A stretch of 64,000 nucleotides of DNA, from positions 1 through 64,000 of IMG/VR virus record IMGVR_UViG_3300033076_000691. One strand, 5' to 3'. Source of the stretch: a virus. Lineage: Duplodnaviria; Caudoviricetes. Below, piece by piece: positions 1,893-47,100 of this stretch (position 1 is its first letter; every line of letters starts with the position of its first letter). Made by a program: the position numbers and the translations under genes. The notes below the pieces were generated by a model, which ran no database searches, was not told the origin of the DNA, and saw only the letters and a list, made by a program, of their open reading frames with translations.

Positions 1893-1905
1893 CTCCCCTT
1901 TTTTT
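1871..1905. terminator. Bidirectional intrinsic terminator between converging modules
   Basis: aaggggag-aattaa-ctcccctt perfect stem flanked by an A-run on the left and a T-run on the right. It overlaps the stops at 1890-1892 and 1904-1906. Confidence 0.9.
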
Positions 1906-28300: not shown

Positions 28301-28586
28301 ATACTTGCATAGCTTGATCTACATTCTGTTCTAAAGAAAGATCTAATCCGGAAACCCTTTTTAAATTAAAGTCAATTTGCTTTAACAACTCATCTTTTTT
28401 CTTAACATTTAAGTCATGAGTTAAATCAGAATTATACAACTGACCATATACATTATTCAGTTGTTTCCAGTTAGTATCATACTGTGTTTGTTTTGCCTGA
28501 AGTAGATTAGAATAGAAATTAAAGTCAGGCTGAAACGGCTGATAATCTGGTATATAATCTGTGACTCCTTGTAAGTACGTTGCCAT
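25392..28586 (-). CDS. Putative internal virion/ejection protein (1064 aa)
   Basis: Long helical ORF starting MATY...YQPFQPDFNFY. Lies between the cargo genes and the RNAP block as in crAss-like phages. Confidence 0.6.
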   Translation of the reverse strand: MATYLQGVTDYIPDYQPFQPDFNFYSNLLQAKQTQYDTNWKQLNNVYGQLYNSDLTHDLNVKKKDELLKQIDFNLKRVSGLDLSLEQNVDQAMQVFRPFYEDKYLMKDMAWTKNWMNTYESANALKTSQDDKQRKQWWSEGIQGLELRRQMFKDATLDETLNMGNAKYTPFVNATQEYMDLAKKYNISKVEQLPDQSGLYLVRKKNGELILPTLQNMFLAEYSNRPDIQDMYREAAFVERMNYAYQNKEKFGSTLEAEKDYIRTKYDWLKNYASDQNTKAKDELNTTENLMGNLEKDIKAGNVNPQQNNYGKSLEEMFAVNSAVAQTASNLNNQINDKQSTSTVKGYDEDILSDMELARLKVDAGFASVRAEQDIMKAANNYASTDASVEYKPNAVGLEFLRDKNARARQTQAHNDRLAEIDKQNEAKMFQKAVDYNVSKNYWSFNADGTLNTNPQVNGFNLNFLMPSPGSNTEGKFTFDELQKMSREKMIDQNATDGVDHLMKTIQNGVNSDSFTAAQLAAMVVKLNPSDPTAKRILKEGSNAKNKAAILKVWSNVWESYSNDPTSFTRRTTESGQIYNLNASLQAWASQHSASTLAQSYFGDKSILQLQQMSRVDDALNMVRNQNYDNIRNKFRQDLNYIVKEVKSKDPGKYANVTQDKIDQAVNLVMNRYVLDGKGHTEEFNKIAAQVDDQISAILGFNIGKKTNQPKEKSWYNYVFPLTNIPGMINGREDVEAGASWVADVFDNSFDELTNLPPEKGGLQSYFPSTVQKRGSGNEYGLATETGMMKVAPGVQWDPGNQSASSMFTTILATNWNQDRNKYRITTGGNILPGSEEEWENTGVNKNEALAIVAELQAQLNTNKDLNPFYIGATTISMENQNQGSMKLMAPREIIEKVIKGMVGADAKESDVKAKIDHIYQNGITFIAPSNTWSSNKLYGNQFPTATEALLRQGPINFTDPAGTGKYTIQRTPGGSDYIGSVVAYEMLPDGSKKQHERYWDVNVRSGKTIDQKEMESFNMIQSLRQLNFDMYRKIHQSGDQKAIQKAQENFGISPTNPFWNYNK

Positions 28587-28620
28587 AATTTATCTTTACG
28601 TAAAACTATTAAAATTTTTT

Positions 28621-28645
28621 AAGTTTAATAAACTTGTTAAGTTTA
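28621..28645. promoter_or_regulatory. Palindromic site TAAACTT-N3-AAGTTTA (copy 1, with an extra half-site)
   Basis: taaactt-gtt-aagttta at 28629-28645, plus aagttta at 28621-28627. The same palindrome occurs at 36192-36208. Confidence 0.5.
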
Positions 28646-31600
28646 CATGATGAATGGTGTCCATGTATCAATATAAATAAAACCACCATCTGCATATACA
28701 GGTCCACCATCTTTACTCATCCCAGGATACATTGTATTTACCATACTTCCTTGAGCTTGTGCTGTAGTTGTATTACCAGATAACTTAGCAGCATTGATAG
28801 CATTTCTTGCACACTCATCTGGATTTGATGCACCAGATGCTTTACATTTTTCTCTTTGTGCAAAGTAATCACTTTGTGTTCCTGTGGTTGTACCAGTAAC
28901 AGTTTTTTCAGTAGGTCTAAAATCCATTCTACCACCTACTCCTGGAGCAACTGCATAGTTAGGGAACATCTGATTTAGTGCATCAGTCTTCCATCTATTA
29001 GTAATAGCATTAGTATAGTAGTTTCTAACATTGTTTCTCATTGCTAACTTAGCATTATCAAACTGTTGGTTAGCAACTGTATTTTGATCATATACTCTTT
29101 GTGCTGTTGCTTGTTTCAACATACTCTCTTGGTTTCTAATATCATTTGCTTTCATTTCAAATTGATTAGCAATGTTGACATTAGCATTGTTATATCTACC
29201 TAATATGTCTGCAGCATTTTTAGCAGCTTGACCTTGAATACTTGCTGATCTTGAAGACAATGCTTGAGGACCTGCAAACTGTGCCATACCTTGAGTTTGT
29301 ATATTTGCTTGTTCTGCATTAGCAGCAAGTTCTCTGGTAGGGTCAATAAAGGTAGGTCTTGGTACTCCAAGTTCAACAGGAGCTGCCCATGGCATTCTTT
29401 TCTTAAGACCCATTAGATCTCCAAATGCACCAGTAGTTTTAATAGTATCTTGTAACCACCATTCAGAAGGAGGACCTGGTATATCAATACTACTATCTTC
29501 TTTACATGGAGGACAGTTACCGTTTTGATCAGCAGTCATTTCTATTACTGTACCATCTGATTTTTGACAAGGACATTTTTTAGGTTCAGTTGGTTCACAT
29601 GTACAATTTCCTTGAGCATCTTTTGGTTTATAATTAGGTTTACTTTGATCTTCACATTGACACGGTTCTTCACCAGGGACATCTTCAAATTTCAATCCAT
29701 GATGAGCTTGTTTTTCATCTTGTGTTGTATTTGTATAGTATGCATCAATAGGAGAGATGTTAGTAATTGCTTGACCCGTTTCATCATTATATCCAGTTTG
29801 TTTACCATAAGGATTAAATCCAGCAAAACTTGTAATACCTAGTAATGCTAATTGTGTGTCTTCATCATATTTACCAGGATTAGCATCAAGATCTTTCATT
29901 AATCTATCTGCAGCAATAAATCCAGCTTGTTGGATATATGCTTCTTCATCATAAGGACTAGCAGCTCTACCACTTCCTGTAGCTCTTTTCATTGGTAAAC
30001 CCATATCATCAGAAACTTTTTCTAATGATGTGTATCCGCTACTTTTAATTTTATTATACATTGCCTGTATATCGGCATCAGAAAGATTTGGATTAGCATC
30101 TTTTACAACATCTTTAAAACCTCTTCTATCTCCTTTTGCATCACCAGAACTATCAAAATTTCTTAAGTCACCATTACCATCTTTATACATCCAAGATCCA
30201 AATGCAGGAATACCTAACTTATCTTTATAAGTTGTAGTCTTTAAATTCCTTTCTTGCATTCTTAGATAATTTTTTACAATTTCATCGTCTGTAAGTGTAG
30301 AAGGATCTTTACCAAATTGAGCTTGATATGTAGTAGAATATTTACCACTTTTACCTTTATATGCTTGTTGATCTGCTAAAGTTGCTCTTACTTGATTTGC
30401 AAATGCAGCTTTAGCTTTTGGATCATTAAAGGTTTGTGACATTGCTTCAAATGTTGCAGCAGCTACCACATTACCGTTCCATTTATCTAGATCAGTACCT
30501 GAGTATTTATCATGACCTGTAGCAGTAACTTTTTGTTCTACCTTTTTACCATCAGGTTGGATTACATATATTTTTTGTTTACCTCTTCCTGATTGCACAT
30601 AAGCTCTTCTTAATGCATTTTGATATTCTTCTTCAGTTTTATAGTCTGCACGTTTAACTATAATACCATCATCTGCTTTAACTAATGGGAACATAGGACT
30701 AGATGCCGGAATTCTTTTTGTTCTACCTTGATAGTTATTAGAATTAGCACCCATTGCCATACCATATTCTGCTTCTGGTAAGTCATAGAAAGGCATATCA
30801 TAACCACCCATAGACATACCATATTGTGCCATAGGAGGTGCAGGTTGTTCCTGACCACCTTGTGCTTGACCCATTGCTTGTTGTACTAATCCAGCAGCCT
30901 CTTCTTGAGATGCACCTAGTTGTGTAAAGATTTGTACAATAGCTTCTGGAGGTAATCCATTCTGCAACAGACTCATTACAACTTCTTGTGGTTGTGCACC
31001 ATTCTGTAATGCTCCTTGAACTTCTTGAATGATTTCCATCATTTGATCTTGACCACCAGCTTGTGGTTGACCTTGTTGTTGCATCATTGCCATTTCTTCA
31101 GGAGATGGTTGTTGCATACCTTCTTGAGCTCTTCTTAATCTTCTCATACCACCACCATACATCATCATTTCTTCCATGCTTGGTTGTTGAGATGGTTGTG
31201 CAACAGGTTGTCCTTGGTTCATATCTACAGCTTGTTGAAGCTGATCATCACCACCACCTTGTTGTTCTTCCATTTGTTTCTTAAGTTGATCATTAAGAAC
31301 TTTAATTTCTTTACTTGGAAGTATATCTTCTTCTGTCAATCCTCTTGCTTCCATACATGGTTTAGCAACAACAGGAATTCCTTGTGGGAATCCCTTTTTA
31401 GATTCTTGAGCTAATGCAAGACAACCTAACTTAACAACATATTTTTTAATCATTAACTCAGCAGTCTTTCTATCAATCTCATCTGTCTCAGGATCTTCTA
31501 GAATTTTTCTGTATTTCTGAATGTCATATTGTTTTGCAAGTTCAGCAGGAGTATAAGATTTACCTGCACTTTTTCCAAACATAGCAAGTAACTCAGGATC

Positions 31601-31936
31601 TTTTATTTTCATACCTCTAGTATCACTGAAAATAAAAGTATCTTCTGGAAGACTTAATGGAACTCCACCTTGTGCATGTCTTGGTCCTTTGATAATTTGA
31701 TGTTCTGGCATCCCATCACCATTGATGTCTCCATATACTGTTTCTCCACCTTCTGCTTCTAAGTTAGCTTCATCTCTTGGAACAGCAGTAATATATCTAC
31801 TTTCTCTAAGTTTAGGTTGACCAATGTATGCATTGTAATCTGCACCACCCATTGCTGGTACATCATTTACTAAAGCACCTTGTACTTGATACCCTGTTCT
31901 AGCTTTAGGAATTTTTTTAATTCTAACTTTTATCAT
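28643..31936 (-). CDS. Putative cargo/internal virion protein (1097 aa)
   Basis: N-terminal domain with NLEAEGGETV, GPRHAQGGV and FIFSD motifs recalled from crAss-like cargo proteins. Q/M-rich region, A/Q/N-rich coiled C-terminal half, several AxxG/xxGG motifs. Confidence 0.6.
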   Translation of the reverse strand: MIKVRIKKIPKARTGYQVQGALVNDVPAMGGADYNAYIGQPKLRESRYITAVPRDEANLEAEGGETVYGDINGDGMPEHQIIKGPRHAQGGVPLSLPEDTFIFSDTRGMKIKDPELLAMFGKSAGKSYTPAELAKQYDIQKYRKILEDPETDEIDRKTAELMIKKYVVKLGCLALAQESKKGFPQGIPVVAKPCMEARGLTEEDILPSKEIKVLNDQLKKQMEEQQGGGDDQLQQAVDMNQGQPVAQPSQQPSMEEMMMYGGGMRRLRRAQEGMQQPSPEEMAMMQQQGQPQAGGQDQMMEIIQEVQGALQNGAQPQEVVMSLLQNGLPPEAIVQIFTQLGASQEEAAGLVQQAMGQAQGGQEQPAPPMAQYGMSMGGYDMPFYDLPEAEYGMAMGANSNNYQGRTKRIPASSPMFPLVKADDGIIVKRADYKTEEEYQNALRRAYVQSGRGKQKIYVIQPDGKKVEQKVTATGHDKYSGTDLDKWNGNVVAAATFEAMSQTFNDPKAKAAFANQVRATLADQQAYKGKSGKYSTTYQAQFGKDPSTLTDDEIVKNYLRMQERNLKTTTYKDKLGIPAFGSWMYKDGNGDLRNFDSSGDAKGDRRGFKDVVKDANPNLSDADIQAMYNKIKSSGYTSLEKVSDDMGLPMKRATGSGRAASPYDEEAYIQQAGFIAADRLMKDLDANPGKYDEDTQLALLGITSFAGFNPYGKQTGYNDETGQAITNISPIDAYYTNTTQDEKQAHHGLKFEDVPGEEPCQCEDQSKPNYKPKDAQGNCTCEPTEPKKCPCQKSDGTVIEMTADQNGNCPPCKEDSSIDIPGPPSEWWLQDTIKTTGAFGDLMGLKKRMPWAAPVELGVPRPTFIDPTRELAANAEQANIQTQGMAQFAGPQALSSRSASIQGQAAKNAADILGRYNNANVNIANQFEMKANDIRNQESMLKQATAQRVYDQNTVANQQFDNAKLAMRNNVRNYYTNAITNRWKTDALNQMFPNYAVAPGVGGRMDFRPTEKTVTGTTTGTQSDYFAQREKCKASGASNPDECARNAINAAKLSGNTTTAQAQGSMVNTMYPGMSKDGGPVYADGGFIYIDTWTPFIM

Positions 31937-31944
31937 TGGTTCCG

Positions 31945-34900
31945 TTATAAATATTCAACTTGTCCTCCGGCTGCTAAGAATTGTTGTAATTCTTCAGGAG
32001 TCATATATACTTCTTCATCTTCTTCATATGGTGCAGTAAACCCTCCGGCTTGCATATAACCACCATATCTACCGATAGCGTAGTTACCATAGGTAGCTCT
32101 ACTACTTCTATCTTGACCTTGCTCAGGAGTTCTATATCCTATATAACTTCCATAATCTACTTGATCTCCTCTATCTTTTTCAGTAGATGAACCCATTAAA
32201 TTATATACATCTGCTGTATCTAAAAGGAAGTTTTTTTCTTTTTTAGCATTTCGGAATCTATCAATACCACCCAAGATACCTCTTGCTCCTGCATTAAATA
32301 CATTTACACCAGCTTCAGGATCAATAGATCTCATTTTTTTCCTTTTATTTTCTACACCTACATATTGATTTGGTGTAGGTGGTTCTTTTTCAGGAATAAT
32401 CTCTTGACCTTGTGCTCCTAAAGTATGTCCGGTATTTGCTGTTTCTGTATATGATCCAGTACCTGTTGCATTAATATAAGCAAAAGGATTTTGATCTTGA
32501 TTGATTGAAGACCCTCTTGGTGATCCAAACAAAGTATTTTCAAATTGAGCATCAGCAGAATGTGGTCCAAATGCAGACATGTCTTGTCCTATACCATTAC
32601 TAAAACCTGTACCTAATTCAAATGGATTAACTCCACCATAACGGTATTCCATTTGAGGGCCACCATATTGCTTTTGATCTTTTACACGTTTTGTAGATTT
32701 ATCTTCATAGTATCTAGAACCCTGTGCCCCAAATCTTACCTTATCTCTGAAACGTCTTGCATCTTCATTTTCAAAAGCATATGTAGTTCTAGCATGTCTT
32801 TTTTCTGCATTAGATAATTCATCCCAATGTTTCTTATTCCATGCATCTTCTTGAAGCTTTGAATCTATATATTCATTTCTACTTACTCTATCAGGTTTTT
32901 CTGAACGTTGTCTTCTTTCTTTTTCAGGATCTACCATCCCTTTAAGTTGAGCAACATCAATAGGATTGTCTCCTGCAACTTTATAAATGTCTAACCATTC
33001 TTTTTCTTTACCAAGTAAACCTTTTTTAGTAACATATCTTGCAGCAACTTCTGGTGGTAATTGACCCATAAAAGCATTCTTAGTACCTAAGTAATAAGGT
33101 TTACCCATTGGTTGTGCATATGATCCCATGTTAGCCATAATAGGATTCCAAGGTAAGAGTGTATTTGCAATTGAACCTTGACCTCTTACTATTCTAGGAA
33201 CATAGTTCACCTGTGCTACTGGAATACAAGCTTTATATTTTTCATTCCAAATAGTACCCGGACCACATTTTGTTTTAGCAGGAGTTTGTAAAAATGGATT
33301 ATCTACAGGTTTACCATAGTTCATATACTCATCAAGACTTTTATTATAAAAATCTTCATACTGTTTGTACTCTGCTTCTCTTTTAGATTTATTATCTTCA
33401 GAAGTAAAGTCACTATACCAGGTATCATAATCTCCTTCTGGATTTGCAGCTTCATAATCTTCTTGATTTGTTTCACCTGCTAACCAATCTTCATATCCTA
33501 ATTTATCTCCTACTACTCTTTTTTCACCAGCTTGGTTCATAATATTGATACCATATTGTGCTTCAGGTAAACCATAAGGTTCATAGTATTCAGATTCATT
33601 ACCACCATAAATAAATCTAGTGAGTGGATTTTTAGAATCCATGTCAACAAAACCACCAATTTCTGCTTGTGGTTGCATTGACATATCATCAGCTAAGTTT
33701 TCTTTATAACCATTTTGCATCAAAAGATTCATGATCTGTGGGTTATACTTAGCATTATCATAGATTTCTCCAGTAAGAGCTTTATTAGAATTATTTTTAA
33801 GAGTATTCTTAAACATATTCTTTTTATTCTCAATAGTGTTAGTTAAGTCATCTGTTCTTTTACCTTTACCAATAGTTTGTTCTTGACCACCTTCTTGAAA
33901 TCTTGCTGTTACAGCTTTAATAAAGTTAGATTTAGATGTACCACCAAATTTAAAATCATCTGCGGGCATCACAATGTTAACATTAGGATTGTTAACACTA
34001 GAGTCTTTATATCTATAATAGTTATATGTTGATGGATAAATTCCTTTTTGAATTAGGAATTGCATACTATCTGGATAAGTTAAGTCTCTTTGATCAATTT
34101 GTTTATTAAACTCAACTCCTGTAGGATCTAGTGTTCTAATAGGTCCTACATCAGTACCACATGGACAGTTGCCATATTTATCTTTTGGTTGATAATTATT
34201 ACCAGATGGGTCTTCACATTGACATTGATTATACAATGAATCCCATGTTTTATAACCAGCATATCCCAGAGCTCCTGCACCAAGTAAAGTATTACGACCT
34301 ATTCTATACTTATAGTTTAATGCATTATTGATATCATTTGCATATGAACCTTCAGCAGCAGGATTAATTACATTAGGACCTAATGCTGGATTTACATATC
34401 CAAATGTAGGTAATTCAACATTTTGAATATTTTTAGCTTTAGTTCTAAATAACTGATTTAAACCTGTAGTAGCATAAGTTTCTAAACCTCTACCAACTTT
34501 ACCTCTATTACTTAATTGTGCATAAGGTGTAGGTGGTTGTTCAGTAATATATGAATATAAACCTTTTAAAGGAGTATTTTTGGGAATATTTAAACCTCCT
34601 GCAAATGGAAACTCTGTTGTGTGAGGAAATGGTGTTACCTGATCTCTTAAAAGTAAATCACCAAAATTCTGTTTTATACCAGAAAGAGCTGGTGGAGTAA
34701 CAATACTTTTTGATTTTACACCTTGTGAAAGAGGATTACCCATTTGGTCAAATACCATTGGGGCACCTGTTTCAGGATCAATATTATAATAGAATCTATT
34801 TTTAAATGTAAGTTCTTTTGCTTTAGATGATGTAGACCCAAATGGTAATTTTTGATTAGGTCCAAACTTATGTGTTATCTCAAAAAATTTATTTCCAGAA

Positions 34901-36147
34901 TCATCTGTACCACCAATAATTTTAGAGTCAAGTGGATAAACCCCACCAAGTAAACCATCTGTTTCAGCTACTGTATTTAAGTCAGATAATTTAAATGATG
35001 ATGCACCTCTGTCCAATTGATTAATAATCTTAAATACATCATCTTGGTATAATTGCAGTCTATCTACACCTAAACTTCCATCACCACCACCGGTAATACT
35101 ACCATTATAACTAAAGACTCCTGGTTTAGGAGTAACATCCCCATGTAAAACTTTCCAAAGCTCATCTCTGTTTTGAGTAAAAGTTGTCTTTAACTGAGGT
35201 GTAAGTTTAGCTCCAACATAAGGTAACTTAGTCATTGCTTGACCTGTCATTGTTGCTAACGGTACCATCTTACGAATAGTACTCAAGTTAGTCATAGGTG
35301 TCAATGCTTTGGTATAACCAGGACCCTGAGTTAATAAGGGATACTGTTTTAATAATCTTGCAAGTACACCACCATCTTGTGCTTGTGGTAAATATTGCTG
35401 TGGTTGAAATGAATCAGATACTGGTCTATAGTCTCCAATGTAATATGAAAGATCAGGAAATGCTTCTTGATTTTGCATACCTGGAGTAATAGCCATCAAG
35501 TCTTCTAGTGAAAATGGTTTTTTATTTTTAAGATTTCCTGCTGTTCCATACTGATCTATTACATTTTTTTGAGTACTGTCAGCTTGATCATTTATAAATT
35601 CTTCATTTTCACCACCATCTTCCATGTAACCACCGTATCTACCAAATGCTTGTTCTTGTTCATCTTGTTCTGTTTCTAGATGACTAGTATCATTATTGGC
35701 AGCTTCTTCTTGATCATAATAACCCTCACTTGAATTTGCTAATTCTTCATCTTCAGCATCATCAGAAGCTCTTTGTTCTTCTTCATCAATTTGTTGTTGA
35801 GTTTGAGGATTGTTATTAGGAGCTTGTTCTTCTTGTTTTTGTACTGCTGATGGATCAAAATAACCTTCTTCAGAAAGTTGAGTAATAGCAGATTGAATAA
35901 TACTCAATGCTGTTGTTTGATCTAATGCATATGATGTAATCAGTTCATTATAAACTAGATCCGGAGTAATTGAGTTCTTTAAAGAAAGATATGCGTTCTC
36001 ATATATCTTATTTAATCTTGCAGGATCTTTACTTACAGAACCAACTTCCATACCCATCTGAGCTTTCTTTAGAAACTTGGCTGTATTATTATAGTATCCT
36101 GGTGTTTCTCCTGGACCTGCTTTTCTTATTCTAACTGATTTCTTCAT
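31945..36147 (-). CDS. Modular putative cargo protein (1400 aa) with many xxGG motifs
   Basis: Long ORF between muzzle and RNAP block. GRYGGYMxxGG occurs twice, with about 14 motif copies in total. Confidence 0.6.
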   Translation of the reverse strand: MKKSVRIRKAGPGETPGYYNNTAKFLKKAQMGMEVGSVSKDPARLNKIYENAYLSLKNSITPDLVYNELITSYALDQTTALSIIQSAITQLSEEGYFDPSAVQKQEEQAPNNNPQTQQQIDEEEQRASDDAEDEELANSSEGYYDQEEAANNDTSHLETEQDEQEQAFGRYGGYMEDGGENEEFINDQADSTQKNVIDQYGTAGNLKNKKPFSLEDLMAITPGMQNQEAFPDLSYYIGDYRPVSDSFQPQQYLPQAQDGGVLARLLKQYPLLTQGPGYTKALTPMTNLSTIRKMVPLATMTGQAMTKLPYVGAKLTPQLKTTFTQNRDELWKVLHGDVTPKPGVFSYNGSITGGGDGSLGVDRLQLYQDDVFKIINQLDRGASSFKLSDLNTVAETDGLLGGVYPLDSKIIGGTDDSGNKFFEITHKFGPNQKLPFGSTSSKAKELTFKNRFYYNIDPETGAPMVFDQMGNPLSQGVKSKSIVTPPALSGIKQNFGDLLLRDQVTPFPHTTEFPFAGGLNIPKNTPLKGLYSYITEQPPTPYAQLSNRGKVGRGLETYATTGLNQLFRTKAKNIQNVELPTFGYVNPALGPNVINPAAEGSYANDINNALNYKYRIGRNTLLGAGALGYAGYKTWDSLYNQCQCEDPSGNNYQPKDKYGNCPCGTDVGPIRTLDPTGVEFNKQIDQRDLTYPDSMQFLIQKGIYPSTYNYYRYKDSSVNNPNVNIVMPADDFKFGGTSKSNFIKAVTARFQEGGQEQTIGKGKRTDDLTNTIENKKNMFKNTLKNNSNKALTGEIYDNAKYNPQIMNLLMQNGYKENLADDMSMQPQAEIGGFVDMDSKNPLTRFIYGGNESEYYEPYGLPEAQYGINIMNQAGEKRVVGDKLGYEDWLAGETNQEDYEAANPEGDYDTWYSDFTSEDNKSKREAEYKQYEDFYNKSLDEYMNYGKPVDNPFLQTPAKTKCGPGTIWNEKYKACIPVAQVNYVPRIVRGQGSIANTLLPWNPIMANMGSYAQPMGKPYYLGTKNAFMGQLPPEVAARYVTKKGLLGKEKEWLDIYKVAGDNPIDVAQLKGMVDPEKERRQRSEKPDRVSRNEYIDSKLQEDAWNKKHWDELSNAEKRHARTTYAFENEDARRFRDKVRFGAQGSRYYEDKSTKRVKDQKQYGGPQMEYRYGGVNPFELGTGFSNGIGQDMSAFGPHSADAQFENTLFGSPRGSSINQDQNPFAYINATGTGSYTETANTGHTLGAQGQEIIPEKEPPTPNQYVGVENKRKKMRSIDPEAGVNVFNAGARGILGGIDRFRNAKKEKNFLLDTADVYNLMGSSTEKDRGDQVDYGSYIGYRTPEQGQDRSSRATYGNYAIGRYGGYMQAGGFTAPYEEDEEVYMTPEELQQFLAAGGQVEYL

Positions 36148-36160
36148 AACGTATGTTATA

Positions 36161-36180
36161 TACTAAATATACTAAATTTT
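36161..36180 (-). promoter_or_regulatory. Putative phage late-promoter motif (TTTAGTATATT)
   Basis: Minus strand reads aaatttAGTATATTtagta upstream of the ATG at 36147. The same motif occurs at 52041-52055, 54069-54086 and 58161-58178. Confidence 0.55.
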
Positions 36181-36191
36181 AATTTAATCAA

Positions 36192-36208
36192 TAAACTTAT
36201 AAAGTTTA
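36192..36208. promoter_or_regulatory. Palindromic site TAAACTT-N3-AAGTTTA (copy 2)
   Basis: taaactt-ata-aagttta, overlapping the TAA of the upstream gene exactly as copy 1 does. Confidence 0.5.
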
Positions 36209-39200
36209 TTCATCCTCAACTATATAACCATCTTTAACATACTGGTCTATTTCTTTTTGAGTAAGTTCTAATGCTACTCCTCCATTTTTATGAAGCATAT
36301 AGAAATGTTTATGTAACTGTGTAGCATGTCCTTTTTTAGTCAGATCATCCCATCTCTTTCGTCCTTCTTGAGTATGCATTCCACTTGAAACTAATGGATT
36401 TAAACCTACTTGCTGTAATGAATTTGTTATAGCTTTATTAAACTCACCTGATACTCCAGTACCCATTAGGTTAAATCTATCAGATAAACCAAATGGATAA
36501 TCTCTTTCTTTCATAAATATGAGTTGATCTTCTAATGTAGGAATACCATGTTGTCCTTTATCAAATCTTGTTATACCAATATCTCCCGTCAAATTATTAC
36601 CAACATAAGTAGACATATCTAATCTAAGTAACGGGTTTCCTGATAAATCAAATGAAGATTCTGTTACAGGATTAATTTTAACTTTTAATTGATCGTCAAT
36701 TTTTTTAATACCTAATCCTTTAGCAAGGTTTTCATTAACTAAAGACTCAAACTCTGGAACAGTAACTCTAAGTCCTGGAGATTCCATTAAGTAAATGGCT
36801 GGTTTTGCAGCCTTAGTAAGTTTAGTTCCTGCTTTAACAATTTGTCCAAGACTAGCCTTTTGTAATATTCCACCTTTTTCTTTTATTTGAGTAGAATTTT
36901 TTTGCCAAGGATTAGTTAATAATTCCTCAGCTTTACTGTAAACTTTTTTAACAGGTTCTTCAACATATTCATCAAGATACTCTTGAGGTGCGGTCATACC
37001 CATACCAGCAAGAGCAGCAGCATAAGCAGCAGCATATCCATATCTTTCTAAAAGACTTTGAAGATTACCCCCCATGGTTGCAGGATCAAATTGATCATTT
37101 CTAAGGGCTTCCATATTAACAGGAATATACCTATTAGAAAATGGCAGTCTTCTGTGAAAAGATAAACCAGGATCTGATATAGGAATGCTAGGTTTTATAC
37201 CACCTTGATTATCAGTAATTAAAACTCCATTTCTTTTTGATAAACTTCTATAACCTAAATTAGTTCCCGGAGCCTTAGTATCTAAACGTACCCCAAATAC
37301 TCCCGGATAACTTTCATTTGGATTACCTGGTTCTGCCCAATTTCCTTCTTTTTTAATTTGAGATTTACCCATTCTTAATAAAGGGCCATGTGAAGGATCT
37401 AATTGACCAGTTAATTTTACATAATCTAAACTATCTCCAAATTTTCTAAATGCAGTATTATCTACATACTCAGATAAATCTTTACCATAGAAAGGAAGAT
37501 AATTTAAAGGACTTCCTATAAATGGTCCTAATCCATCATACCCAGCTCCAAAAGTTAAAATTTTTATAGGGTTCATCATTACAGGAGCTAATGTTTTTGC
37601 TAAACTATTAGCTGTTCCAATAGTTCCAACATTTGCTATTCTTCCTAGATTTTTACCAGTTTTAACAATTTGTCCAAGATTAGCTTTTGGTAAAGTACCA
37701 CCTTTACTATATCCTAACAACTTTCTTGCATCAAGTGCATTTTGAGTTTGTTGAGTTGGCATAGTAAAATCTGAAAAGTTTGTATAATTTGTAGGGACAG
37801 ATTTTATACCTTTTGCAAATCTATATGCTGGAAGTGCACTAAGACCTGCCATTGATGCATCCCAGGCTGCTTCCCCATAATTACCTTTATTAAAAGATTC
37901 TTTTGCATCAGCAAGATTTTGATCTAATCCTAGTAATACACTTGCATCAACAAATGGATTGCCCAACATATTTGAAACAACTGGTTTAACAAATCCAGTA
38001 CCTTTTCCAATAGCATTGAGTCCTTTTATTCCTCCATAAGTAGTACCAATATCCCAAAGTTCATTTCCAAGTGCTTCTGTAAACTTTCCTTCATTATACC
38101 CTTCTCTTAAATTCATTCCAATTTTAAATGGATTAAATGCATTTAGAGTTTGATCTAAAACACCTGTAGGTGTCAATTTTGACATAGTTCCTAAATCAGT
38201 ACCAAATTTATCTTCAGCTTTTAATCTATCATCATAGCTTCTATTCCAATCACCCCACATTTCTTCTCTTGGGTTTAATGCATAATATGCAGAATGAAAT
38301 GGATGTTTTAATACATCTTTTACTTTATCTTCTGTAGTTAGTTCTCTATTTGGATCACCTTGTTTTATCTGTTGACCACTGTGTATAATAGCAGCATTGT
38401 ATATGTCTCCTTGTTGTTCCTGTAATAAATCTTGGTAAGTTTTTTTTGAACCAGAAACCTTTTTTCCTAAAATTGATTGAACAGCTGCATTAGGATCAGT
38501 TTGATATAAGTTGATAAAAGAAGATTTTTCTTTATCATTTAATTCTGAAATAGCTTTTTTAAGAACATCTCTTTGAGCTGGTACAACTAAATTACCTAGG
38601 TATTCTGAAACAGCTTTGTTATAATCTTGGTTTTCTGCTGAAGTTCTTTTAGCTTCTGCATCACGTAGAATAACTGCATCCCTAGACAATTGATTGGCAT
38701 TTCTTTGCATTGCCATTTGATCATCTTGAGAATATCTTATATCAGAATTATCAATATCACCATACTTATCCATCCATTCATTAAATGCTTTTTGACCACG
38801 TTCAATTTTATCAGAATGGTATTTTAAATCTGTTTCTGCAGGGTGATATCTTTTTTCCCAAGCAGCTTGAGGATCATTTGAAAAGAATACATCTTGATCT
38901 TTAGCAAGTTTAGAGTTATCAGTTTGCATACTATCTAAACCTTGAGTAATATTACCCAATGCATCGTTTAATATCTTTTGAGTAGGTTGTATAAATTTTT
39001 TTAACTCAGTTTGATTACCTAAAGAACTAGGTAAAGATTTTACAACTTCTGCCGGAGACTTTCCTTCTTCAAGAGCTTTGGTAATAATTTTATTTGTCAC
39101 CGTAGCATCATACTGTTCTTTTGCAGCATCCATTAAAGAACCTAGTTGTTCTTTAACTTGTTTAGGATCCAGCCCCCAATAGTTTTTAAATTGATCTGCT

Positions 39201-39799
39201 TGATAACCATTATTAACAATCCTATTATATGCAAGATCTAAAGGATATAGTTGTGCAAATCCTGTTTCTGAATTTTTATTAATTAAAAATGTTTTTTTTA
39301 ATTCTTCTTCAGTATCTTTAGTTAAATTAGATAAAGGTATAACATCAAATGGTTCAATTTTATCAGACTTCTTTGAAGCATCAAATGTTTTATAATATCC
39401 ACTAACTTTATTATCATAATTTCTTCTCTGTTCTTCTAATAATTTTTGTTGCCCTTCTTCCCGTATACTTTGCATCTTTTGTTCATGTGCAAGTTTTCTA
39501 TCAGACATTTGTTTTTCAAAACCCTTTTGTTCTTCAGCCCATGCAGCACGTAACTCAGATTCAGTTAAACATTGACCATTATAATCATACTTACCTGGAG
39601 GACATTGTTTACCTGTCATTACAGGAGATTGCATCTCATTCCAATATGAAGGTTGTGCTACATTCTCTACTTCAACCATTGGCTGTTCTTGATCAGTAGA
39701 AGACTCATTGTCTTTTCTACCTTTCATTATTTTTGTAGTCTTATTAAATACACCACCATATCTAGCTTGTGGTATGCTTGTAATTCTATACTTTGCCAT
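36206..39799 (-). CDS. Modular putative cargo protein (1197 aa) with C-terminal GNAT-like module
   Basis: Modules separated by KGG-x-L-x-KA-x-LGQIVK linkers (two copies). The last module has MGTGVSGEF...LVSSGMHTQEGRKRWDDL. Confidence 0.6.
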   Translation of the reverse strand: MAKYRITSIPQARYGGVFNKTTKIMKGRKDNESSTDQEQPMVEVENVAQPSYWNEMQSPVMTGKQCPPGKYDYNGQCLTESELRAAWAEEQKGFEKQMSDRKLAHEQKMQSIREEGQQKLLEEQRRNYDNKVSGYYKTFDASKKSDKIEPFDVIPLSNLTKDTEEELKKTFLINKNSETGFAQLYPLDLAYNRIVNNGYQADQFKNYWGLDPKQVKEQLGSLMDAAKEQYDATVTNKIITKALEEGKSPAEVVKSLPSSLGNQTELKKFIQPTQKILNDALGNITQGLDSMQTDNSKLAKDQDVFFSNDPQAAWEKRYHPAETDLKYHSDKIERGQKAFNEWMDKYGDIDNSDIRYSQDDQMAMQRNANQLSRDAVILRDAEAKRTSAENQDYNKAVSEYLGNLVVPAQRDVLKKAISELNDKEKSSFINLYQTDPNAAVQSILGKKVSGSKKTYQDLLQEQQGDIYNAAIIHSGQQIKQGDPNRELTTEDKVKDVLKHPFHSAYYALNPREEMWGDWNRSYDDRLKAEDKFGTDLGTMSKLTPTGVLDQTLNAFNPFKIGMNLREGYNEGKFTEALGNELWDIGTTYGGIKGLNAIGKGTGFVKPVVSNMLGNPFVDASVLLGLDQNLADAKESFNKGNYGEAAWDASMAGLSALPAYRFAKGIKSVPTNYTNFSDFTMPTQQTQNALDARKLLGYSKGGTLPKANLGQIVKTGKNLGRIANVGTIGTANSLAKTLAPVMMNPIKILTFGAGYDGLGPFIGSPLNYLPFYGKDLSEYVDNTAFRKFGDSLDYVKLTGQLDPSHGPLLRMGKSQIKKEGNWAEPGNPNESYPGVFGVRLDTKAPGTNLGYRSLSKRNGVLITDNQGGIKPSIPISDPGLSFHRRLPFSNRYIPVNMEALRNDQFDPATMGGNLQSLLERYGYAAAYAAALAGMGMTAPQEYLDEYVEEPVKKVYSKAEELLTNPWQKNSTQIKEKGGILQKASLGQIVKAGTKLTKAAKPAIYLMESPGLRVTVPEFESLVNENLAKGLGIKKIDDQLKVKINPVTESSFDLSGNPLLRLDMSTYVGNNLTGDIGITRFDKGQHGIPTLEDQLIFMKERDYPFGLSDRFNLMGTGVSGEFNKAITNSLQQVGLNPLVSSGMHTQEGRKRWDDLTKKGHATQLHKHFYMLHKNGGVALELTQKEIDQYVKDGYIVEDE

Positions 39800-39801
39800 G
39801 G

Positions 39802-42800
39802 TTAGATTTTTTCAAATGTATATCCAAGTTTTTCTAATTCTCTCATAGTAGCTTCATCTACTTCATCTCCTAAAGTATAATCAACATTACCACCTTCTTC
39901 CCAGCTATCTAATGTTTTATATGTTTTAGGATCTACAACAAAGTTGTTTTCAATTAAGAATGGTTTACCACCAACTAATTTTAAAGCTTCTACGTTCTGC
40001 AATGGTTTAAAAAATGAACTTGCTGCAATTTGTTTTGCTGCATCTGTTGGATTTAAATAGGCATGTCCTCTTTTTTCCCAAGGATTAAGATCCCAAATAT
40101 CATTTGTTGTAAATTGTAAACCTTGTGGATGATCATTTATATCCCATCCAAATCCACCCATTACACCAAACTGATCATTATCCCAAACTTTACCTGTTGA
40201 AACACCTGAGAATGGTTGTAAATCATTTAATTTTGCATGTCTTGATCTTACCCATGGATTCCATCCAGCAATTCTCATTGCATCTTGTTGTCTCATCCAA
40301 TCATCAAGCTCTTGTTCATTTCCATAATTTGCTTGTCTTTTTATTCTATAATGCTCTCTAGTTAAATCTTCTAAAGGATTATGTCCAAAAGATAAACCCT
40401 GTTCATATCCTGATGCTCTTAAATCATTATACAAATCATTAAAGTAATCCGGACTATATGCAGTATTTAACATGCGGAACTTATTATCTCCAATTTGTTC
40501 TAATGTACCATATTCTTGTGGTAATCCTAAACCAACTGCCCAAGCATCTAATCTTCTTTGACCAATATCATTTAATTTACTTAAAGTAGACTGATCAAAA
40601 ACTTGCATTCTATCTTTATCAGACATTTTTTTAAACTCCTCTAATGGAATTCTTTTTATTTTTAATAATGTTTCAAGATGTGGTTGATGTCCATACTTTA
40701 AAGACATTCCTACTCTAAACGGTCTAGTTTCATTACTAACAGTATTTTTATATAACTCAGTAGGTAATGCTTTTACTTTATCTAAAATAGCATACCCAGC
40801 TGGATTTATTGATTTATATAATCCAGCTCTTCCTAACTTTCCTAATTCTGATAAACCTACCGGTAATCCATTTGCAGCTTTAGGTAAAAAACCACCATTA
40901 GCATATTGTCTTGTTAATCTATAATTTGGTACTTGTATTTCTTTTAAAGAGCTTCCTGGCACATTAAAGACTCTAGCTTGTTCTGTCATTCCTTTTTGCA
41001 ATAACATATCATTAAGTCTTTTGACCATTTCATCAGCAGTTTCTTGTTTTAATGATCTACCCGTACGAATACCTCTAGGAACTTCTAATCCTTCAAATAA
41101 GTTATGATTTACAGACATATAATTTAAAGGTATATGATTTTCATAAGTCATTTGCCAATCAGGTCTTTTACCCATATTAAGCAACATATTATATGAATCT
41201 AAACTTAAACTATATGGTTCTAGAATAGATGGGTTAGGTTTTGTAAATGCTTGATTCATTAACTGAAATGCTCTTCCAGCTTCAATTGAATTTGGCATCT
41301 TAGCAAGGAAATGAAAAGTATTATCATCTACACCTTTAACTTTTGGATTTGGATACAATGTTAAATAACCTGATTGATCTTTATTATAAATATCAAGAGG
41401 AAATGTTACATTAGCTGGAAAATCTGCAGGAATACTTCCTAAAGTTAATTTAGTTGGAGGTACTCTAGGTATTATTGAAGTTGTTCCTCGTACCCAACCT
41501 GATGGTGAAGGTACTTTAGATACTTTTGAAAGTGCATTACCAGCTTTAGTTATCATTCCATAACTAGCTTTAGTAAGTTCAGGAACAGATATATCTTCAA
41601 TAATGTAACCACCTTTAGCATATTCTTGAATCTCTTCTGGTGTAAGGTCTGCTTCAATATAATCTTCTTCAGTTGGTTTACCTTTTAAATAGTTACGGAT
41701 GTCTTTAGCAGCAGCTCTCATTTCAGGAGAGTCATACTTTCTTTCTATTCTATAATCTTTTCTACCCTTTGAAAACATACCAATACTACCTGGAGCAAGT
41801 TGTGCTCTTAACTGACCATCTATATAATTTTCATCAAATCTATCTCTACTTTGAGTGCTACCATTTTTTACTTGTCCTTCATACTCCCAAGTCATATCCT
41901 CACCTCTTGCATCTCTTACAGCTTTTTCAAAGTTTTGTAAAAGAGGTTGGTAGTTTGGATCATCCCGCATACCATGCATCATATCTAAGAATACATCTCC
42001 TCTATTAGCACCTCTTGGATTATATAAAGCAAGATACGTATTTGGTGATGGATTTGGATAAATATATTCAGGACCATTTTCTTCGATAAGATTATCATAT
42101 CTTATTTCAGGATTACCTTCTGGAAATTGAAATTCTATATCTCCGTAACCCACACTTCTAGCATCATAGTTAGGGTCTTTTACAATACTTAAATTCTCCC
42201 CTTCTGCACCATAGACACCCTGCATACCAGGATATCTTTTCATTAATCTTTTCTTGAACTTATCACCTGATTCACCACCATCTTGAAAATACTGAGAGTT
42301 AGGATCATAAATTTTATTTTTTCTAGATTTAGGTTGTGCAAAAAATGGATGCTCAGCAAGTAATCTATTTGTTGCTTCTAAACTTCTAGAGTATGCACGG
42401 GCATTTTTCTTTTTAGGTAACTTAGGAATACTACCACCTTTTTTAAAGTCTTCTGGTTTTTCTAAATCCGGAATACCTGATAGGTTATAATTAGAAGTAA
42501 GTTCCTCATTTGGTTTTATATCTCGTGTTGCAACCATAACAATATGGTCACCATTATCAACCTCTCTTACATTTGGTTCTTCACTATGATTATAATAACC
42601 TAATACAGTAGATGGGAATGGTGCTTGATATAATTCTCCATTTCTATTAAATACTTTTCTAATATGTGATATTCCAATAGGTTCTCCTGCTCTTATAGGT
42701 TCATTTGTAAACAAACCTTTACCTTGAATCTTAGATGGTTTTACACTTACTTGTTTGTAAATAGGAGTATCAACTCCTTCTTTAGCACTAACAAATTCTT

Positions 42801-44196
42801 TTGGTGATTCACCACCTTCTTTTTTAACAACTCCTCCATCTTTATTTCTTGCACCAGATCTATTCATAAGTTGATTATATGCATCAGATCCAGAAAGTTT
42901 ATTTGATGTTTCTTTTTGCCATCTTTCTAATGCAGAATTACGCAGTTTAATAATAACTTGTTTTCTCCAAGCTTCTAATTGTTCTGGTGTAGCATTATTA
43001 ATATCATCAAGTTTTAGTCCAAGTTGACCACGAAATTCACTAGCAATAAGTTTAGGGTCTCCTGTATACAACGGACTGTTAATATCATATGTATCAATAT
43101 ACTCTTTATATGTTCTTGGTAATGTATCTTCTCCTTTTGTTAAACTACTTAAAGAAGATTTATTAAGCATTTTTTTATTTGTAAAAGTTGGATTGTATAA
43201 GCCTTTATTAATTAATGCTTCAGTTTGCTCTGGTGAAAGTATCTTACTTCTAAAGTTTGGCATATAAACTCCAGGAAATAAATTAGAAAATAATTCATCT
43301 CTACTTGTATCTTGATTAAATGCGTTCCACATAGTCGTAGCTGGGTCTTCTGGATACATTTTATCAAATTGATTCCGAGCATTACGGTAATCAATTTCTT
43401 TTTGAAAAAGATTTATAATTTCTTTATCTGTAAAAAAATCTTCTTTTGACGGCATCCATTGAGGACCTGCTAGTTGGTGTAGAGCATTTTGAGATACTTG
43501 CCAACCAGGACTAAAATTTTTAAATTCATAATCTTTACCTTTAATTAAATTGGGATCATATCCATCAAGTTTACCAGAACCGTATAATGAAGAATATGCA
43601 TTTTTTAATCCTTCTTGTCTCCAATTAGGGTCTGTTTCTAATTGCTGAGTTGCTTCATTTAATATATTATAATCTTGTGGATCAATATAATATGCTTCTA
43701 ATCCTGCAGGTAAATAAGGATCTCCACCAAATCGTATTGGAAAGTAACTATCAATTGCAGGATTAGTTAATAAATTTTTAGTATCTTGAGTCATTATAGG
43801 AAACTTAGCAACAACTTTGGGTGCGGTATTTCCTAGTGTTGACATAATGGGTGGTAATCCCATCATTTTACCGGCTGATCCTGAAAATCTAGTAAGACCT
43901 CCCATTGATTTTTTAACCAATGATTTGTTATTTGTTGGAAATTCATCAACATAATCAGCATCTGGAAAATGATAATCTTGACCAGGATACATCATCCGTG
44001 GTTGACCAACATTTGGTTTTGCCATTACAGGATATGGTACTCCCTGCATGGTAATTGTATTAGAAGGGATACGAGTTATTTCTCCTGGATGTGCCCACTG
44101 ACCATTAGGATCTACAATAATATCTTTCTTAGCAGTTGGAGCTTTTGCATTACCAAGTTTTCTAAGAGCATCAATAAGTACTTTTTTATTATGCAT
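39802..44196 (-). CDS. Modular putative cargo protein (1464 aa) containing a SET-domain methyltransferase module
   Basis: SET signatures SKIQGKGLF, NHSEEPN and ATRDIKPNEELTSNY at ~42481-42760, bounded by KKEGG and FKKGG. Confidence 0.75.
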   Translation of the reverse strand: MHNKKVLIDALRKLGNAKAPTAKKDIIVDPNGQWAHPGEITRIPSNTITMQGVPYPVMAKPNVGQPRMMYPGQDYHFPDADYVDEFPTNNKSLVKKSMGGLTRFSGSAGKMMGLPPIMSTLGNTAPKVVAKFPIMTQDTKNLLTNPAIDSYFPIRFGGDPYLPAGLEAYYIDPQDYNILNEATQQLETDPNWRQEGLKNAYSSLYGSGKLDGYDPNLIKGKDYEFKNFSPGWQVSQNALHQLAGPQWMPSKEDFFTDKEIINLFQKEIDYRNARNQFDKMYPEDPATTMWNAFNQDTSRDELFSNLFPGVYMPNFRSKILSPEQTEALINKGLYNPTFTNKKMLNKSSLSSLTKGEDTLPRTYKEYIDTYDINSPLYTGDPKLIASEFRGQLGLKLDDINNATPEQLEAWRKQVIIKLRNSALERWQKETSNKLSGSDAYNQLMNRSGARNKDGGVVKKEGGESPKEFVSAKEGVDTPIYKQVSVKPSKIQGKGLFTNEPIRAGEPIGISHIRKVFNRNGELYQAPFPSTVLGYYNHSEEPNVREVDNGDHIVMVATRDIKPNEELTSNYNLSGIPDLEKPEDFKKGGSIPKLPKKKNARAYSRSLEATNRLLAEHPFFAQPKSRKNKIYDPNSQYFQDGGESGDKFKKRLMKRYPGMQGVYGAEGENLSIVKDPNYDARSVGYGDIEFQFPEGNPEIRYDNLIEENGPEYIYPNPSPNTYLALYNPRGANRGDVFLDMMHGMRDDPNYQPLLQNFEKAVRDARGEDMTWEYEGQVKNGSTQSRDRFDENYIDGQLRAQLAPGSIGMFSKGRKDYRIERKYDSPEMRAAAKDIRNYLKGKPTEEDYIEADLTPEEIQEYAKGGYIIEDISVPELTKASYGMITKAGNALSKVSKVPSPSGWVRGTTSIIPRVPPTKLTLGSIPADFPANVTFPLDIYNKDQSGYLTLYPNPKVKGVDDNTFHFLAKMPNSIEAGRAFQLMNQAFTKPNPSILEPYSLSLDSYNMLLNMGKRPDWQMTYENHIPLNYMSVNHNLFEGLEVPRGIRTGRSLKQETADEMVKRLNDMLLQKGMTEQARVFNVPGSSLKEIQVPNYRLTRQYANGGFLPKAANGLPVGLSELGKLGRAGLYKSINPAGYAILDKVKALPTELYKNTVSNETRPFRVGMSLKYGHQPHLETLLKIKRIPLEEFKKMSDKDRMQVFDQSTLSKLNDIGQRRLDAWAVGLGLPQEYGTLEQIGDNKFRMLNTAYSPDYFNDLYNDLRASGYEQGLSFGHNPLEDLTREHYRIKRQANYGNEQELDDWMRQQDAMRIAGWNPWVRSRHAKLNDLQPFSGVSTGKVWDNDQFGVMGGFGWDINDHPQGLQFTTNDIWDLNPWEKRGHAYLNPTDAAKQIAASSFFKPLQNVEALKLVGGKPFLIENNFVVDPKTYKTLDSWEEGGNVDYTLGDEVDEATMRELEKLGYTFEKI

Positions 44197-47100
44197 TATC
44201 TAGGGGAATACTGATTTTTACTATTGTTCATTTTAAGAATCATGTTTACATTATCACATTGTTTCTTTCTTAATGATACAAAATTAAGGTAGTGTCTGAA
44301 TTTTTTTCTTTGCATTTCAGGCTTACCATAATTCATATTATTAGGATTCAAAATTCTTGTGAATCCATCAGCTGCAGTAATCCATGTATTCTCACTAGAA
44401 TAATTACCAAGAAGAACAGTAGTTCCTGGAACCAATGGTCCTGTAGGAGGATAGTCTGATCCAATAGGAAACTCATCTCTATTTCTTGTTATATCCCAGA
44501 ATTGATTAAATCTATATTTATTTTCTTCTTTAGAGAAAAGTATATCATATGAAAACTGATTAGTACCAAGCTTTGGATACTGCAGTGATAAATTAACATC
44601 ATTCTTTGGATAAAGATTTAAGTTAAGATATCCAGATACTTGTTCTGAGTTATACACTACAGCTTCATCAAAGTTGTAATCAAGAACTTGGTGTTGATCA
44701 ATACAACTATTTCCATTTCTTCTATAACATTCAAGGATATATTCCATTGATCTAGTAGTCATTACTGACTGTCCAGTCATAATTGGAAACTCTATTTCCC
44801 ATCCTCTTTGTATACCATAGAAGTTACAGAATCCATCACAGATATAATTATGTTTCCAAAGCGTATTATTCTTAGTACTTAAGAAAATATCTTTAGTAGG
44901 AATAAGTAAATCCGGATGCCAGTCATGGAAACTTAACCAGTATTGATTTTTAGGGTCATAACTAATTGTCCATGATGCATCATCAAATAAGAATGGATCA
45001 CCTAACATATAAATGTTATTCTGATTATTATCTAGTATAAAATAATCACCTGACCCATCAGAATTGATTCCTATATATTTTACTCTACCTTTATACTCAT
45101 CTTTTAGATAATAGTCTTTTTTAGCAAAATACAATATAGTACTTGAGCTATCATATGTAGCTTGACATCCAATACCCGAAACCGGATTATCTTGATATGG
45201 GTAATTAGGGAAATCATCTGTCAGCCTGTATGGTAAGTATAAGATAAACCACCATTTCATACCAGCTTGAGAAATTTCCTGTAATCCATCTCCATAAGTA
45301 AAGATACGTCCTTGATTTTGAGACATATAGAAAATACCTACAGGTGTTGAAATAACAGCTAATCTATTTTGTGATGAACCAAACTCATATGATTTGTCTG
45401 CATTTGATACAGCTTGTTGTGGCTGTGAAAACAATCCACCATCTCCAATAGTAATCTTAGTATTTAAATCTGTCTCAAGTGTATCTACACCTTGGAACAT
45501 TAAAGGACTTTCATTTTTAAACGTAATGAATATACCTGATTTATTAATTGACTTTACACCAGATATTTGACCTTTAAACTCCTTATAGTTATTTACAAGA
45601 TAAATAAACCAACTATCTTTTGTTGCTTCAAATTGTTGCGGTAATGAATAGATGATCCTATCAGGATAATACGTATAACATAACTTAGCAATTTCAGGAT
45701 TGTAATATCTTGACTGAATACTTCCTGAAGAAAAATATTGATTGAATAGTTTAGAAACACTTAATGAATAGTCATAGATATATTCACTCAATCTTCCCAT
45801 TACATTAGGATTCATATCAAACATAGCAGGTAGATCTGTATATCTATATGGATCATAGTGTTTACCACCTTCTCGTGTGCTTTGTTTTCTAAAGTCAATA
45901 AGAACTTCAGACTCTACAAAGAAATCTCTAACACCAGAATTAGCTAAATAAAAGTACGCATCTCTTACAGAAAACATACCTTCATAAGCTTTACTAAGAT
46001 TTCCTGTACCAATACCTATACCCTCTTTTTGATCAGTAGCGTAGTTATAATATCTTTGAGTAATATTATTATTATTATAGTCTACATAATAATCTAGATT
46101 ATAGAATGCACCTGGTAAAGCTCCTGATCCAGGAACAGAAGGGCTACTTATACTTACAGCTTCTGATAAAAATGTTACATCATATAAAATGCTATTTACA
46201 TTAAATCTACTTTGAGGTATCATGTTATGTAAATAGTAATTGTATTCAAAGCCGTCCGGTTGACCATATAACCAATCATAGTAGAACATCATGTTGTTCT
46301 TCTCTGTATAACGGTTAATATAGGTATCTCCACCAAATAAAATAGGACTTCTTTGTATTACTGTAAAGTAATAAGTTTTACCATCTTTTGGACATGTCCA
46401 TGAAAGTGGTGGATTAGGTATGTTATAGTTAGCTAGTTGTTGCTCACATGGAGTAATTACAATTTGACTTTCACTTCCTAATTGACCATACTGATTTCTT
46501 ACTCTACCTTTTAATCCACCATAGTGACTTGCAATAGTTAAGCTAAAAGGTTTTGTTTTTTCATTTTCTTTAAAGACGGGTAAGTCTGTATTTAAAAATG
46601 CTGGGTCAGATGTATTTTGTGCAATTGTACCTAAGGTAACCAATGACTTATCCTGAACTCCAGAAGTAATTAAATTAGGTCCAATATTTACTCCATCAGA
46701 ATATATAGGATTATAGTATGGTCCTGACTTTGTTCTTACTGTAACTGCATCAGATCTTTTTAAGTTATTGATACTATAAGAATGATAGTTACCTAAATAG
46801 TCTTGATACTTTGTTACTTCTTGAAGATTGTCTCTTATGTAAAAACTATCTTCAATTCTAAATCTATTAAGATAAGTATTAGATAGTTTAGTCATATTAC
46901 TATAGTACCCATGACTTATTTGCTGTAATGCATACTGTCTATAAGGTGTAATAGTATAAAATAACTTAATTGCAATATCTGCACCTTCAGAAAAGTAATA
47001 TGAAATTTGATTAAATGCACCTAGTGTTCTAGATACAGGATCTAAATATGCAAATGAAGGTAATTCAATAGTCCCTCCAAGAGTTAACTTTGGTATTCCA

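Follow-up and report, generated by a model that had tools for sequence, protein, structure and literature searches.

Paired terminal motifs at cargo gene borders of an uncultured crAss-like phage and their possible role in head-to-tail docking

In the present study, the proteins encoded behind the muzzle gene of a phage were analyzed in a window of 64,000 nucleotides, which is part of a 103,767-bp virus record of the IMG/VR type (IMGVR_UViG_3300033076_000691) and, judged from its gene content, is a crAss-like phage of an uncultured lineage. Four large predicted cargo genes, designated A to D in order of transcription, lie there on the minus strand. Related acidic motifs (hereafter tails) close the proteins of A, B and C, and those of B, C and D open with related basic x-[VY]-R-I strands (hereafter heads). 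Based on profile comparisons, the tail motif is the first half of a module of approximately 40 amino acids (aa) that also occurs uninterrupted inside cargo proteins. Herein, we propose that docking of each tail on the head of the next protein would link the cargo proteins head to tail; this is the best of the readings considered, and we give it about an even chance of being correct.

According to this proposal, the products of the cargo genes behind the muzzle gene would amount to a string of variable domains with a conserved connector, the ~40-aa module, between them. Within proteins the connector is continuous; at the A|B, B|C and C|D borders, the upstream protein stops right after the acidic first half, and the downstream protein opens with the basic strand and continues with an L-P-x-A-x-x-G stretch similar to the second half. 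By non-covalent binding, the acidic tail and the basic head of the next protein would then take the place of the missing peptide bond, and the holding, packaging or ejection of A, B, C and D would follow gene order, as a single head-to-tail train. More tentatively, the split connector halves might re-associate in such a way that A to D are loaded in fixed stoichiometry and pulled through the portal and tail in gene order.

The connector module and its halves at the gene borders

The six termini quoted in the initial annotation of this DNA, from which the docking idea came, were all present letter for letter (Table 1). The relationship claimed there among the tails of A, B and C was confirmed beyond chance by hidden Markov model (HMM) matching and by profile-profile comparison. 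The C-terminus of B matched an HMM built from internal copies of other phages only (independent E-value (i-E) 2e-13, HMM positions 2-27), and its tail scored 46 bits in a search of its own genome. The A-type and C-type tails aligned with the B-type tail with probabilities of 88% (E-value 2.8e-6) and 92% (E-value 5e-7), respectively, in the same register to the C-terminus. Among the heads, those of B and D (82%, E-value 1e-5) and those of C and D (90%, E-value 1.9e-6) were related in the same type of comparison; the heads of B and C were not significantly similar when compared directly and are linked via D. Conservation is highest at the two ends in both B (70 homologues, with identity down to 24%) and C (at least 110 of 120 homologues), and the net charge calculated from the sequence is negative for the tails and positive for the heads.

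Table 1. Positions in the window of the muzzle and cargo genes, their terminal motifs and neighboring elements
Feature	Coordinates	Strand	Description
Muzzle protein gene	44196..49736	-	1846 aa from ATG; Pfam PF25731 crAss_MUZ, E-value 1.5e-19; start of the cargo block
Cargo gene A	39802..44196	-	1464 aa; starts MHNKKVLID, without head; ends in A-type tail; synteny in 21+38 loci
Uninterrupted internal module in A	41551..41670	-	aa 843-882; C-terminal motif followed directly by ISVPELTKASYG
A-type tail	39805..39870	-	Last 22 aa of A, GDEVDEATMRELEKLGYTFEKI; stop codon 39802-39804; conserved in 16 loci
Cargo gene B	36206..39799	-	1197 aa; middle variable
B head	39752..39799	-	MAKYRITSIPQARYGG; begins 2 nt past the stop of A
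B-type tail	36209..36274	-	ALELTQKEIDQYVKDGYIVEDE; module cut after its first half
Palindromic hairpin AAACTT-ATA-AAGTTT	36193..36207	.	Over the stop codon of B; followed by conserved 58-nt spacer 36148-36205 with TTAGTATAT
Cargo gene C	31945..36147	-	1400 aa
C head	36097..36147	-	MKKSVRIRKAGPGETPG
C-type tail	31948..32013	-	EVYMTPEELQQFLAAGGQVEYL
Cargo gene D	28643..31936	-	1097 aa; last link; without tail motif; own conserved end GGFIYIDTWTPFIM
D head	31889..31936	-	MIKVRIKKIPKARTGY; begins 8 nt past the stop of C
Same palindromic hairpin	28630..28644	.	Over the stop codon of D; followed by conserved 56-nt spacer 28587-28642 with TTTTAATAG...TTTAC
Gene E	25392-28586	-	1064 aa; follows D

The consensus of the module reads Gly-Gly, a short extended stretch, L-T-x-x-E-I-x-x-Y-x-K-G-G-Y-I-V-E-D and then I-S-V-P-x-L-x-K-A-Q-x-G-G, and internal copies are flanked by Gly-Gly on both sides. 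The uninterrupted copy within A matched the HMM of internal copies from other phages with 68.1 bits (i-E 2.5e-21) and reached 83 bits in the search of its own genome. This copy was overlooked in the initial annotation, which had called the pairing of C-terminal and N-terminal motifs complete; it brings the window to four C-terminal against three N-terminal motifs, and completeness therefore holds for the termini only. A profile of the module matched 786 representative proteins among 1.84 billion at E-values of 1e-3 or lower and 384 at 1e-10 or lower, usually with two to four copies per protein. In 120 of the best 150 module proteins, a copy ended within 6 aa of the C-terminus, and 117 of these C-terminal copies stopped at HMM positions 25-29, with most internal copies in the same 150 proteins extending to positions 40-42. 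Gene ends thus fall at one fixed place, just after the first half of the module. The head of B was similar to the second half of the internal module (91%, E-value 1.2e-6, hhalign), and the heads of C and D resemble it only as the pattern L-P-x-A-x-x-G.

The placement of the motifs was counted in 577 distinct proteins comprising 661,398 residues. A-type tails (20) and C-type tails (135) were terminal in every case, and B-type tails were found at 188 termini and 213 internal positions. The heads of B (83), C (137) and D (28) were exclusively N-terminal. A doubled head was observed in one lineage (L041, 12198-14888; L042; L043), in which gene D opens with MQYRIKIVEEPEIYKVRVTDVPKA. Here, one chain contains two basic strands with an acidic IVEE stretch between them; this arrangement may be a cis version of the tail-head pairing.

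No match to the module was found in Pfam at E-values up to 10, in the PDB below an E-value of 0.2 (profile search), in the ESM Atlas or in the published literature, and the phages with the nearest muzzle proteins, Cellulophaga phi17:2 and Flavobacterium Fpv1, do not carry it. The module family and the tail/head pairs are previously undescribed.

For structure prediction, AlphaFold2 was applied to the uninterrupted module alone in two runs, with 16 and then 32 sequences. The only element predicted was a helix spanning residues 20-28 (E-E-I-Q-E-Y-A-K-G); strands were not predicted, and the beta-alpha-beta shape attributed to the C-terminal motif in the initial annotation was not reproduced. These models suggest that the module is a linear motif needing a partner rather than an autonomous mini-domain.

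The level at which the borders are conserved was assessed from synonymous sites. At codons with identical amino acids, the fraction of synonymous differences ranged from 0.16 to 0.42 in the motif stretches, against a baseline of 0.33 to 0.37 in the conserved columns of three proteins (muzzle, D and E); conservation is therefore at the level of the protein rather than that of the DNA. The lowest value (0.16) belongs to the A-type tail, just before the start of B, and may be due to an initiation signal that overlaps it or to the use of an ungapped alignment.

Adjacency and gene splits in related phages

Related phages were represented by 59 loci from two IMG/VR scans, in addition to the window, whose muzzle protein is 56-76% identical to those of the related contigs. 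The gene order muzzle-A-(B)-C-D-E is kept in these loci, together with the border spacings of -1 nt at muzzle|A, 2 nt (or -1) at A|B, 57-58 nt at B|C, 8-10 nt at C|D and approximately 56 nt at D|E. A tail was followed by a head at 69 distinct junctions (65 found by regular expression and four that the expression had missed), and no terminal tail lacked a following head; the adjacency across relatives put forward as a check of the docking idea was thus observed without a tail-only exception. Throughout the lineages, a head is missing from the first gene and a tail from the last. L010 and L013, which look like exceptions to the adjacency, have frame breaks and still encode the tail downstream. 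Within each type, covariation between tail and head was uninformative, the cores being near-invariant.

Gene C lies in two reading frames in one clade (L013, 14298-19006; also L014, P0183 and P0188), where KPFTKKK closes the first piece and a second piece of approximately 250 aa bears the C-type tail. Because this arrangement recurs in several independent sequences, a real split or a programmed shift is possible.

The A|B border offers a natural comparison of split and unsplit forms. More distant lineages have three links only (A'-C-D), and the split state of A|B changed at least four times on the muzzle-protein tree. In L054, a single gene of 2383 aa corresponds colinearly to the two genes A (542 aa) and B (2542 aa) of L046 and L048. 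The split form differs by a 47-aa insert directly behind a full module; this insert comprises the A-type tail and the head of B together with the stop and start codons, and neither motif is present in the unsplit protein of L054. Based on this alignment, the tail and head at A|B appear and disappear jointly, along with the polypeptide break. A regular-expression search for a tail followed in frame by a basic head found none. Neither further unsplit proteins with the N-proximal domain of B nor longer, fused forms of C were found, the latter being weak evidence. Joining of the pieces by read-through or frameshift was rejected because the spacings differ between borders (-1, 2, 8-10 and 57-58 nt).

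Docking was ranked first because it alone would explain three features jointly, namely the strictly terminal heads and two diverged tail types, the asymmetry of the first and last genes, and the presence of tail and head in the split form only. It would also fit the opposite net charges of tails and heads. In crAss001, the cargo protein C1 leaves N to C, and according to Bayfield et al. (2023) the order of extrusion is probably a function of packing and of the interactions between the cargo proteins (PMC10172136). Docking is consistent with this view of crassvirus cargo exiting N to C, with mutual interactions setting the order.

Several results weigh against docking. First, the module alone was not predicted to fold (mean predicted local distance difference test (pLDDT) scores of 68 for 16 sequences and 61 for 32 sequences). 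Second, the adjacency at the 69 junctions is mostly inherited synteny, and the junction counts are therefore not independent events. Third, heads persist where the matching tail is missing: the upstream gene of L029/32/33 and L030/31 carries GGDLSKLNKFI[HY] at its end instead, and the next head is the same as in tail-bearing sister phages, and in L017/L047 the head is kept behind a gene without any tail; in total, three lineages have a head without the tail motif upstream of it. Fourth, the generic B-type module has many internal copies, exceeding the terminal ones, so the tail motif has a role needing no following head. Fifth, only one clean sister pair of split and unsplit forms was found, and no fused form of B+C or C+D. 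Finally, the heads matched the second half of the module weakly in a single-sequence HMM scan (at most 2.6 bits), and the module was not found in the structurally solved gp45-47 of crAss001 or in cultured relatives. Taken together, the docking idea of the initial annotation is partly supported: the adjacency of the motifs is in its favor, and the frequent internal position of the B-type motif, the heads without tails and the lack of a fold in the module alone count against a simple one-to-one code.

Alternative explanations and known systems

A rather unlikely explanation is that tail and head are independent handles for a shared third partner, such as the portal, a tail-barrel ring, the muzzle, the capsid interior or an assembly chaperone, and act as packaging or positioning signals, in line with the shared packaging signals named as an alternative in the initial annotation; the gene borders would then sit at the flexible connector because breaks are tolerated there. 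The 213 internal copies of the B-type module are what a multivalent handle would show, and the heads are unchanged where the upstream tail is replaced or absent. The prediction of a short helix only for the module alone is also consistent with this explanation, since in crAss001 the ring proteins carry short helical segments of C1 and the muzzle carries a 14-residue helix that is unassigned (PMC10172136). However, independent handles would leave unexplained why the first gene lacks a head and the last lacks a tail, and why tail and head are inserted jointly and in the split form only. They would also not explain why four proteins of the packaged type, E and the three giant proteins of 1975-3384 aa behind it, carry neither motif.

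An improbable explanation is that the motifs are pro-peptides or processing sites, in which a protease would cut at the flanking Gly-Gly, cleave internal modules and trim terminal tails and heads, comparable to T4 capsid-targeting sequences or to viral polyproteins cut at GG-X. Gly-Gly or Gly stands just before nearly every tail and just after most heads, the Gly-Gly columns are invariant amid variable sequence, and the natural C-termini fall at one fixed position of the module, as those of cleavage products would. Nevertheless, cleavage alone would not require more than 20 conserved residues at termini that are already free, and no protease turned up, although no systematic search for one was made. 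Double-glycine leaders follow the profile LSxxELxxIxGG and are cleaved by a C39 peptidase. The motifs may resemble this profile in pattern, with the register off by one residue; no similarity to a Pfam family of double-glycine leaders was found.

The view that the conserved borders are DNA-level recombination linkers or translation-coupling signals for cassette exchange, with the peptides as a by-product, is very improbable: the exchange of middle domains between A and B in different phages, the at least four changes of the A|B split state and the low synonymous divergence (0.16) of the A-type tail codons just upstream of the start of B speak for it, but the other motif stretches diverge like the baseline (0.20-0.42 against 0.33-0.37) with the amino acids fixed, the motifs are conserved between phages whose muzzle proteins are only ~56% identical, and the divergence at synonymous sites led to rejection of the linker reading.

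Polyketide synthases (PKS) and non-ribosomal peptide synthetases (NRPS) are known to use matched terminal connectors in place of a covalent linker; to our knowledge, such connectors are not known from phage cargo proteins. The present motifs resemble PKS/NRPS docking and COM domains in being short matched elements at the extreme C-terminus and the next N-terminus that follow gene order (69 of 69 junctions), in the lack of a head on the first subunit and of a tail on the last, and in the absence of the pair where the units are covalently joined (L054 versus L046, one sister pair). They differ in having no sequence or family match (Pfam at E-values up to 10; PDB none below 0.2) and in being much shorter (approximately 22 and 16 aa) and part of predicted phage virion cargo instead of enzymes. 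In addition, the tail here is a truncated copy of an internal linker module, and its binding to a head is a proposal.

The capsid-targeting sequence of T4 internal proteins and the loading leaders of contractile injection systems are short conserved N-terminal peptides common to several packaged proteins. The heads are likewise short, conserved, N-terminal and shared by several predicted packaged proteins; however, they are coupled to the tail of the preceding gene, have no known cleavage and are absent from A, E and the three giant proteins. Like the present system, split inteins involve a matched pair of elements on the two sides of a gene split, and the unsplit form lacks this pair. A split intein, which would need a catalytic nucleophile at residue 1 of the N-part and another at +1 after a His-Asn end, was rejected on the starts of the heads (MAKY, MKKS and MIKV; the nucleophile was judged on the head side only), on the lack of an intein Pfam match or intein blocks, and on the total of 47 aa, which is far too small.

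The closest counterpart by position is found in crAss001, where the cargo proteins C1 (gp45) and C2 (gp46) are encoded directly behind the muzzle gene of a crassvirus, are rich in Gly-Gly and are presumed to be kept within capsid and tail and extruded N to C (PMC10172136). No sequence similarity to gp45-47 was detected (blastp E-value >0.1), and a search with the module HMM found no module, tail or head in these proteins. Moreover, crAss001 has two smaller cargo genes, whereas the window has four of 1100-1460 aa.

The cargo block, its surroundings and significance

The Pfam families Crass_capsid (major capsid protein), CrAss_Ring_2, CrAss_Ring_1 and crAss_MUZ (muzzle) follow one another in this order in the window. 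Behind the cargo genes and gene E stand three giant genes of 2465, 3384 and 1975 aa, and neither E nor these three genes carry a tail or head motif. The position of the block matches that of the crAss001 cargo genes gp45/gp46 and the genes associated with its RNA polymerase (PMC10172136). GenBank phages gave no DNA or protein match to B or D, and an IMG/VR scan with the single B protein gave no matches.

The middle domains of A (aa 92-459 in the window) were found in gene B of other phages (L006, 10001-16252; L020, 4283-10087), and cargo domains therefore shuffle between links, with termini that remain position-specific. A cassette with a SET-domain methyltransferase is present inside A (window 42433-42846, aa 493-571; Pfam PF00856, E-value 4.7e-11) and may represent an injected effector. 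A LysM domain is present at aa 1651-1689 of the last giant gene (1975 aa, window 1904-7831; Pfam E-value 1.8e-8).

The palindrome AAACTT-NNN-AAGTTT occurs exactly twice in the window, over the stop codons of B and D, and the lengths of the 56-58-nt spacers that follow are constant in approximately 30 related contigs. From their sequence, these hairpins and spacers look like unit borders composed of a terminator and a promoter, in which case A-B and C-D would be tightly coupled pairs.

Conserved termini were also observed at the two outer borders of the block. The end of the muzzle protein (...KMSNSKNQ[FY]SPR) adjoins the start of A (MYNKKVLID..L..LG.AKAP), both strongly conserved (window 44196-44240 and 44137-44196), and the end of D (GG[FY][IV]Y[IV]D.W.PF[IL][LM]) adjoins the start of E (MATYLQGVTDYIPDYQPFQPD), again both strongly conserved (window 28643-28690 and 28545-28586). 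These termini may be further contact points. Directly before gene E, an open reading frame of approximately 213 aa with a GIY-YIG-like start (MATYLQSSPGIYKITN...) is present in some loci (L038, 7841-8482; L039, 14148-14789; the L009 region) and copies the first six residues of gene E, which suggests a homing endonuclease inserted at the start of this gene.

The loading of megadaltons of cargo and its ordered extrusion through a narrow tail is an open question for podovirus-like phages, and for crassviruses especially. The present results give this question a testable handle, namely peptide pairs at each of the cargo gene borders, a fused control that occurs naturally (L054 versus L046) and a module family with hundreds of members, of which profiles can be made. 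If docking fails, the module still marks the domain borders in very variable injected effector proteins, including the SET-domain methyltransferase. If docking holds, the tail/head pairs could serve as small orthogonal connectors in protein engineering. The more tentative train of re-associated halves, loaded in fixed stoichiometry, would in turn be a physical mechanism for ordered protein ejection that is undescribed for any phage.

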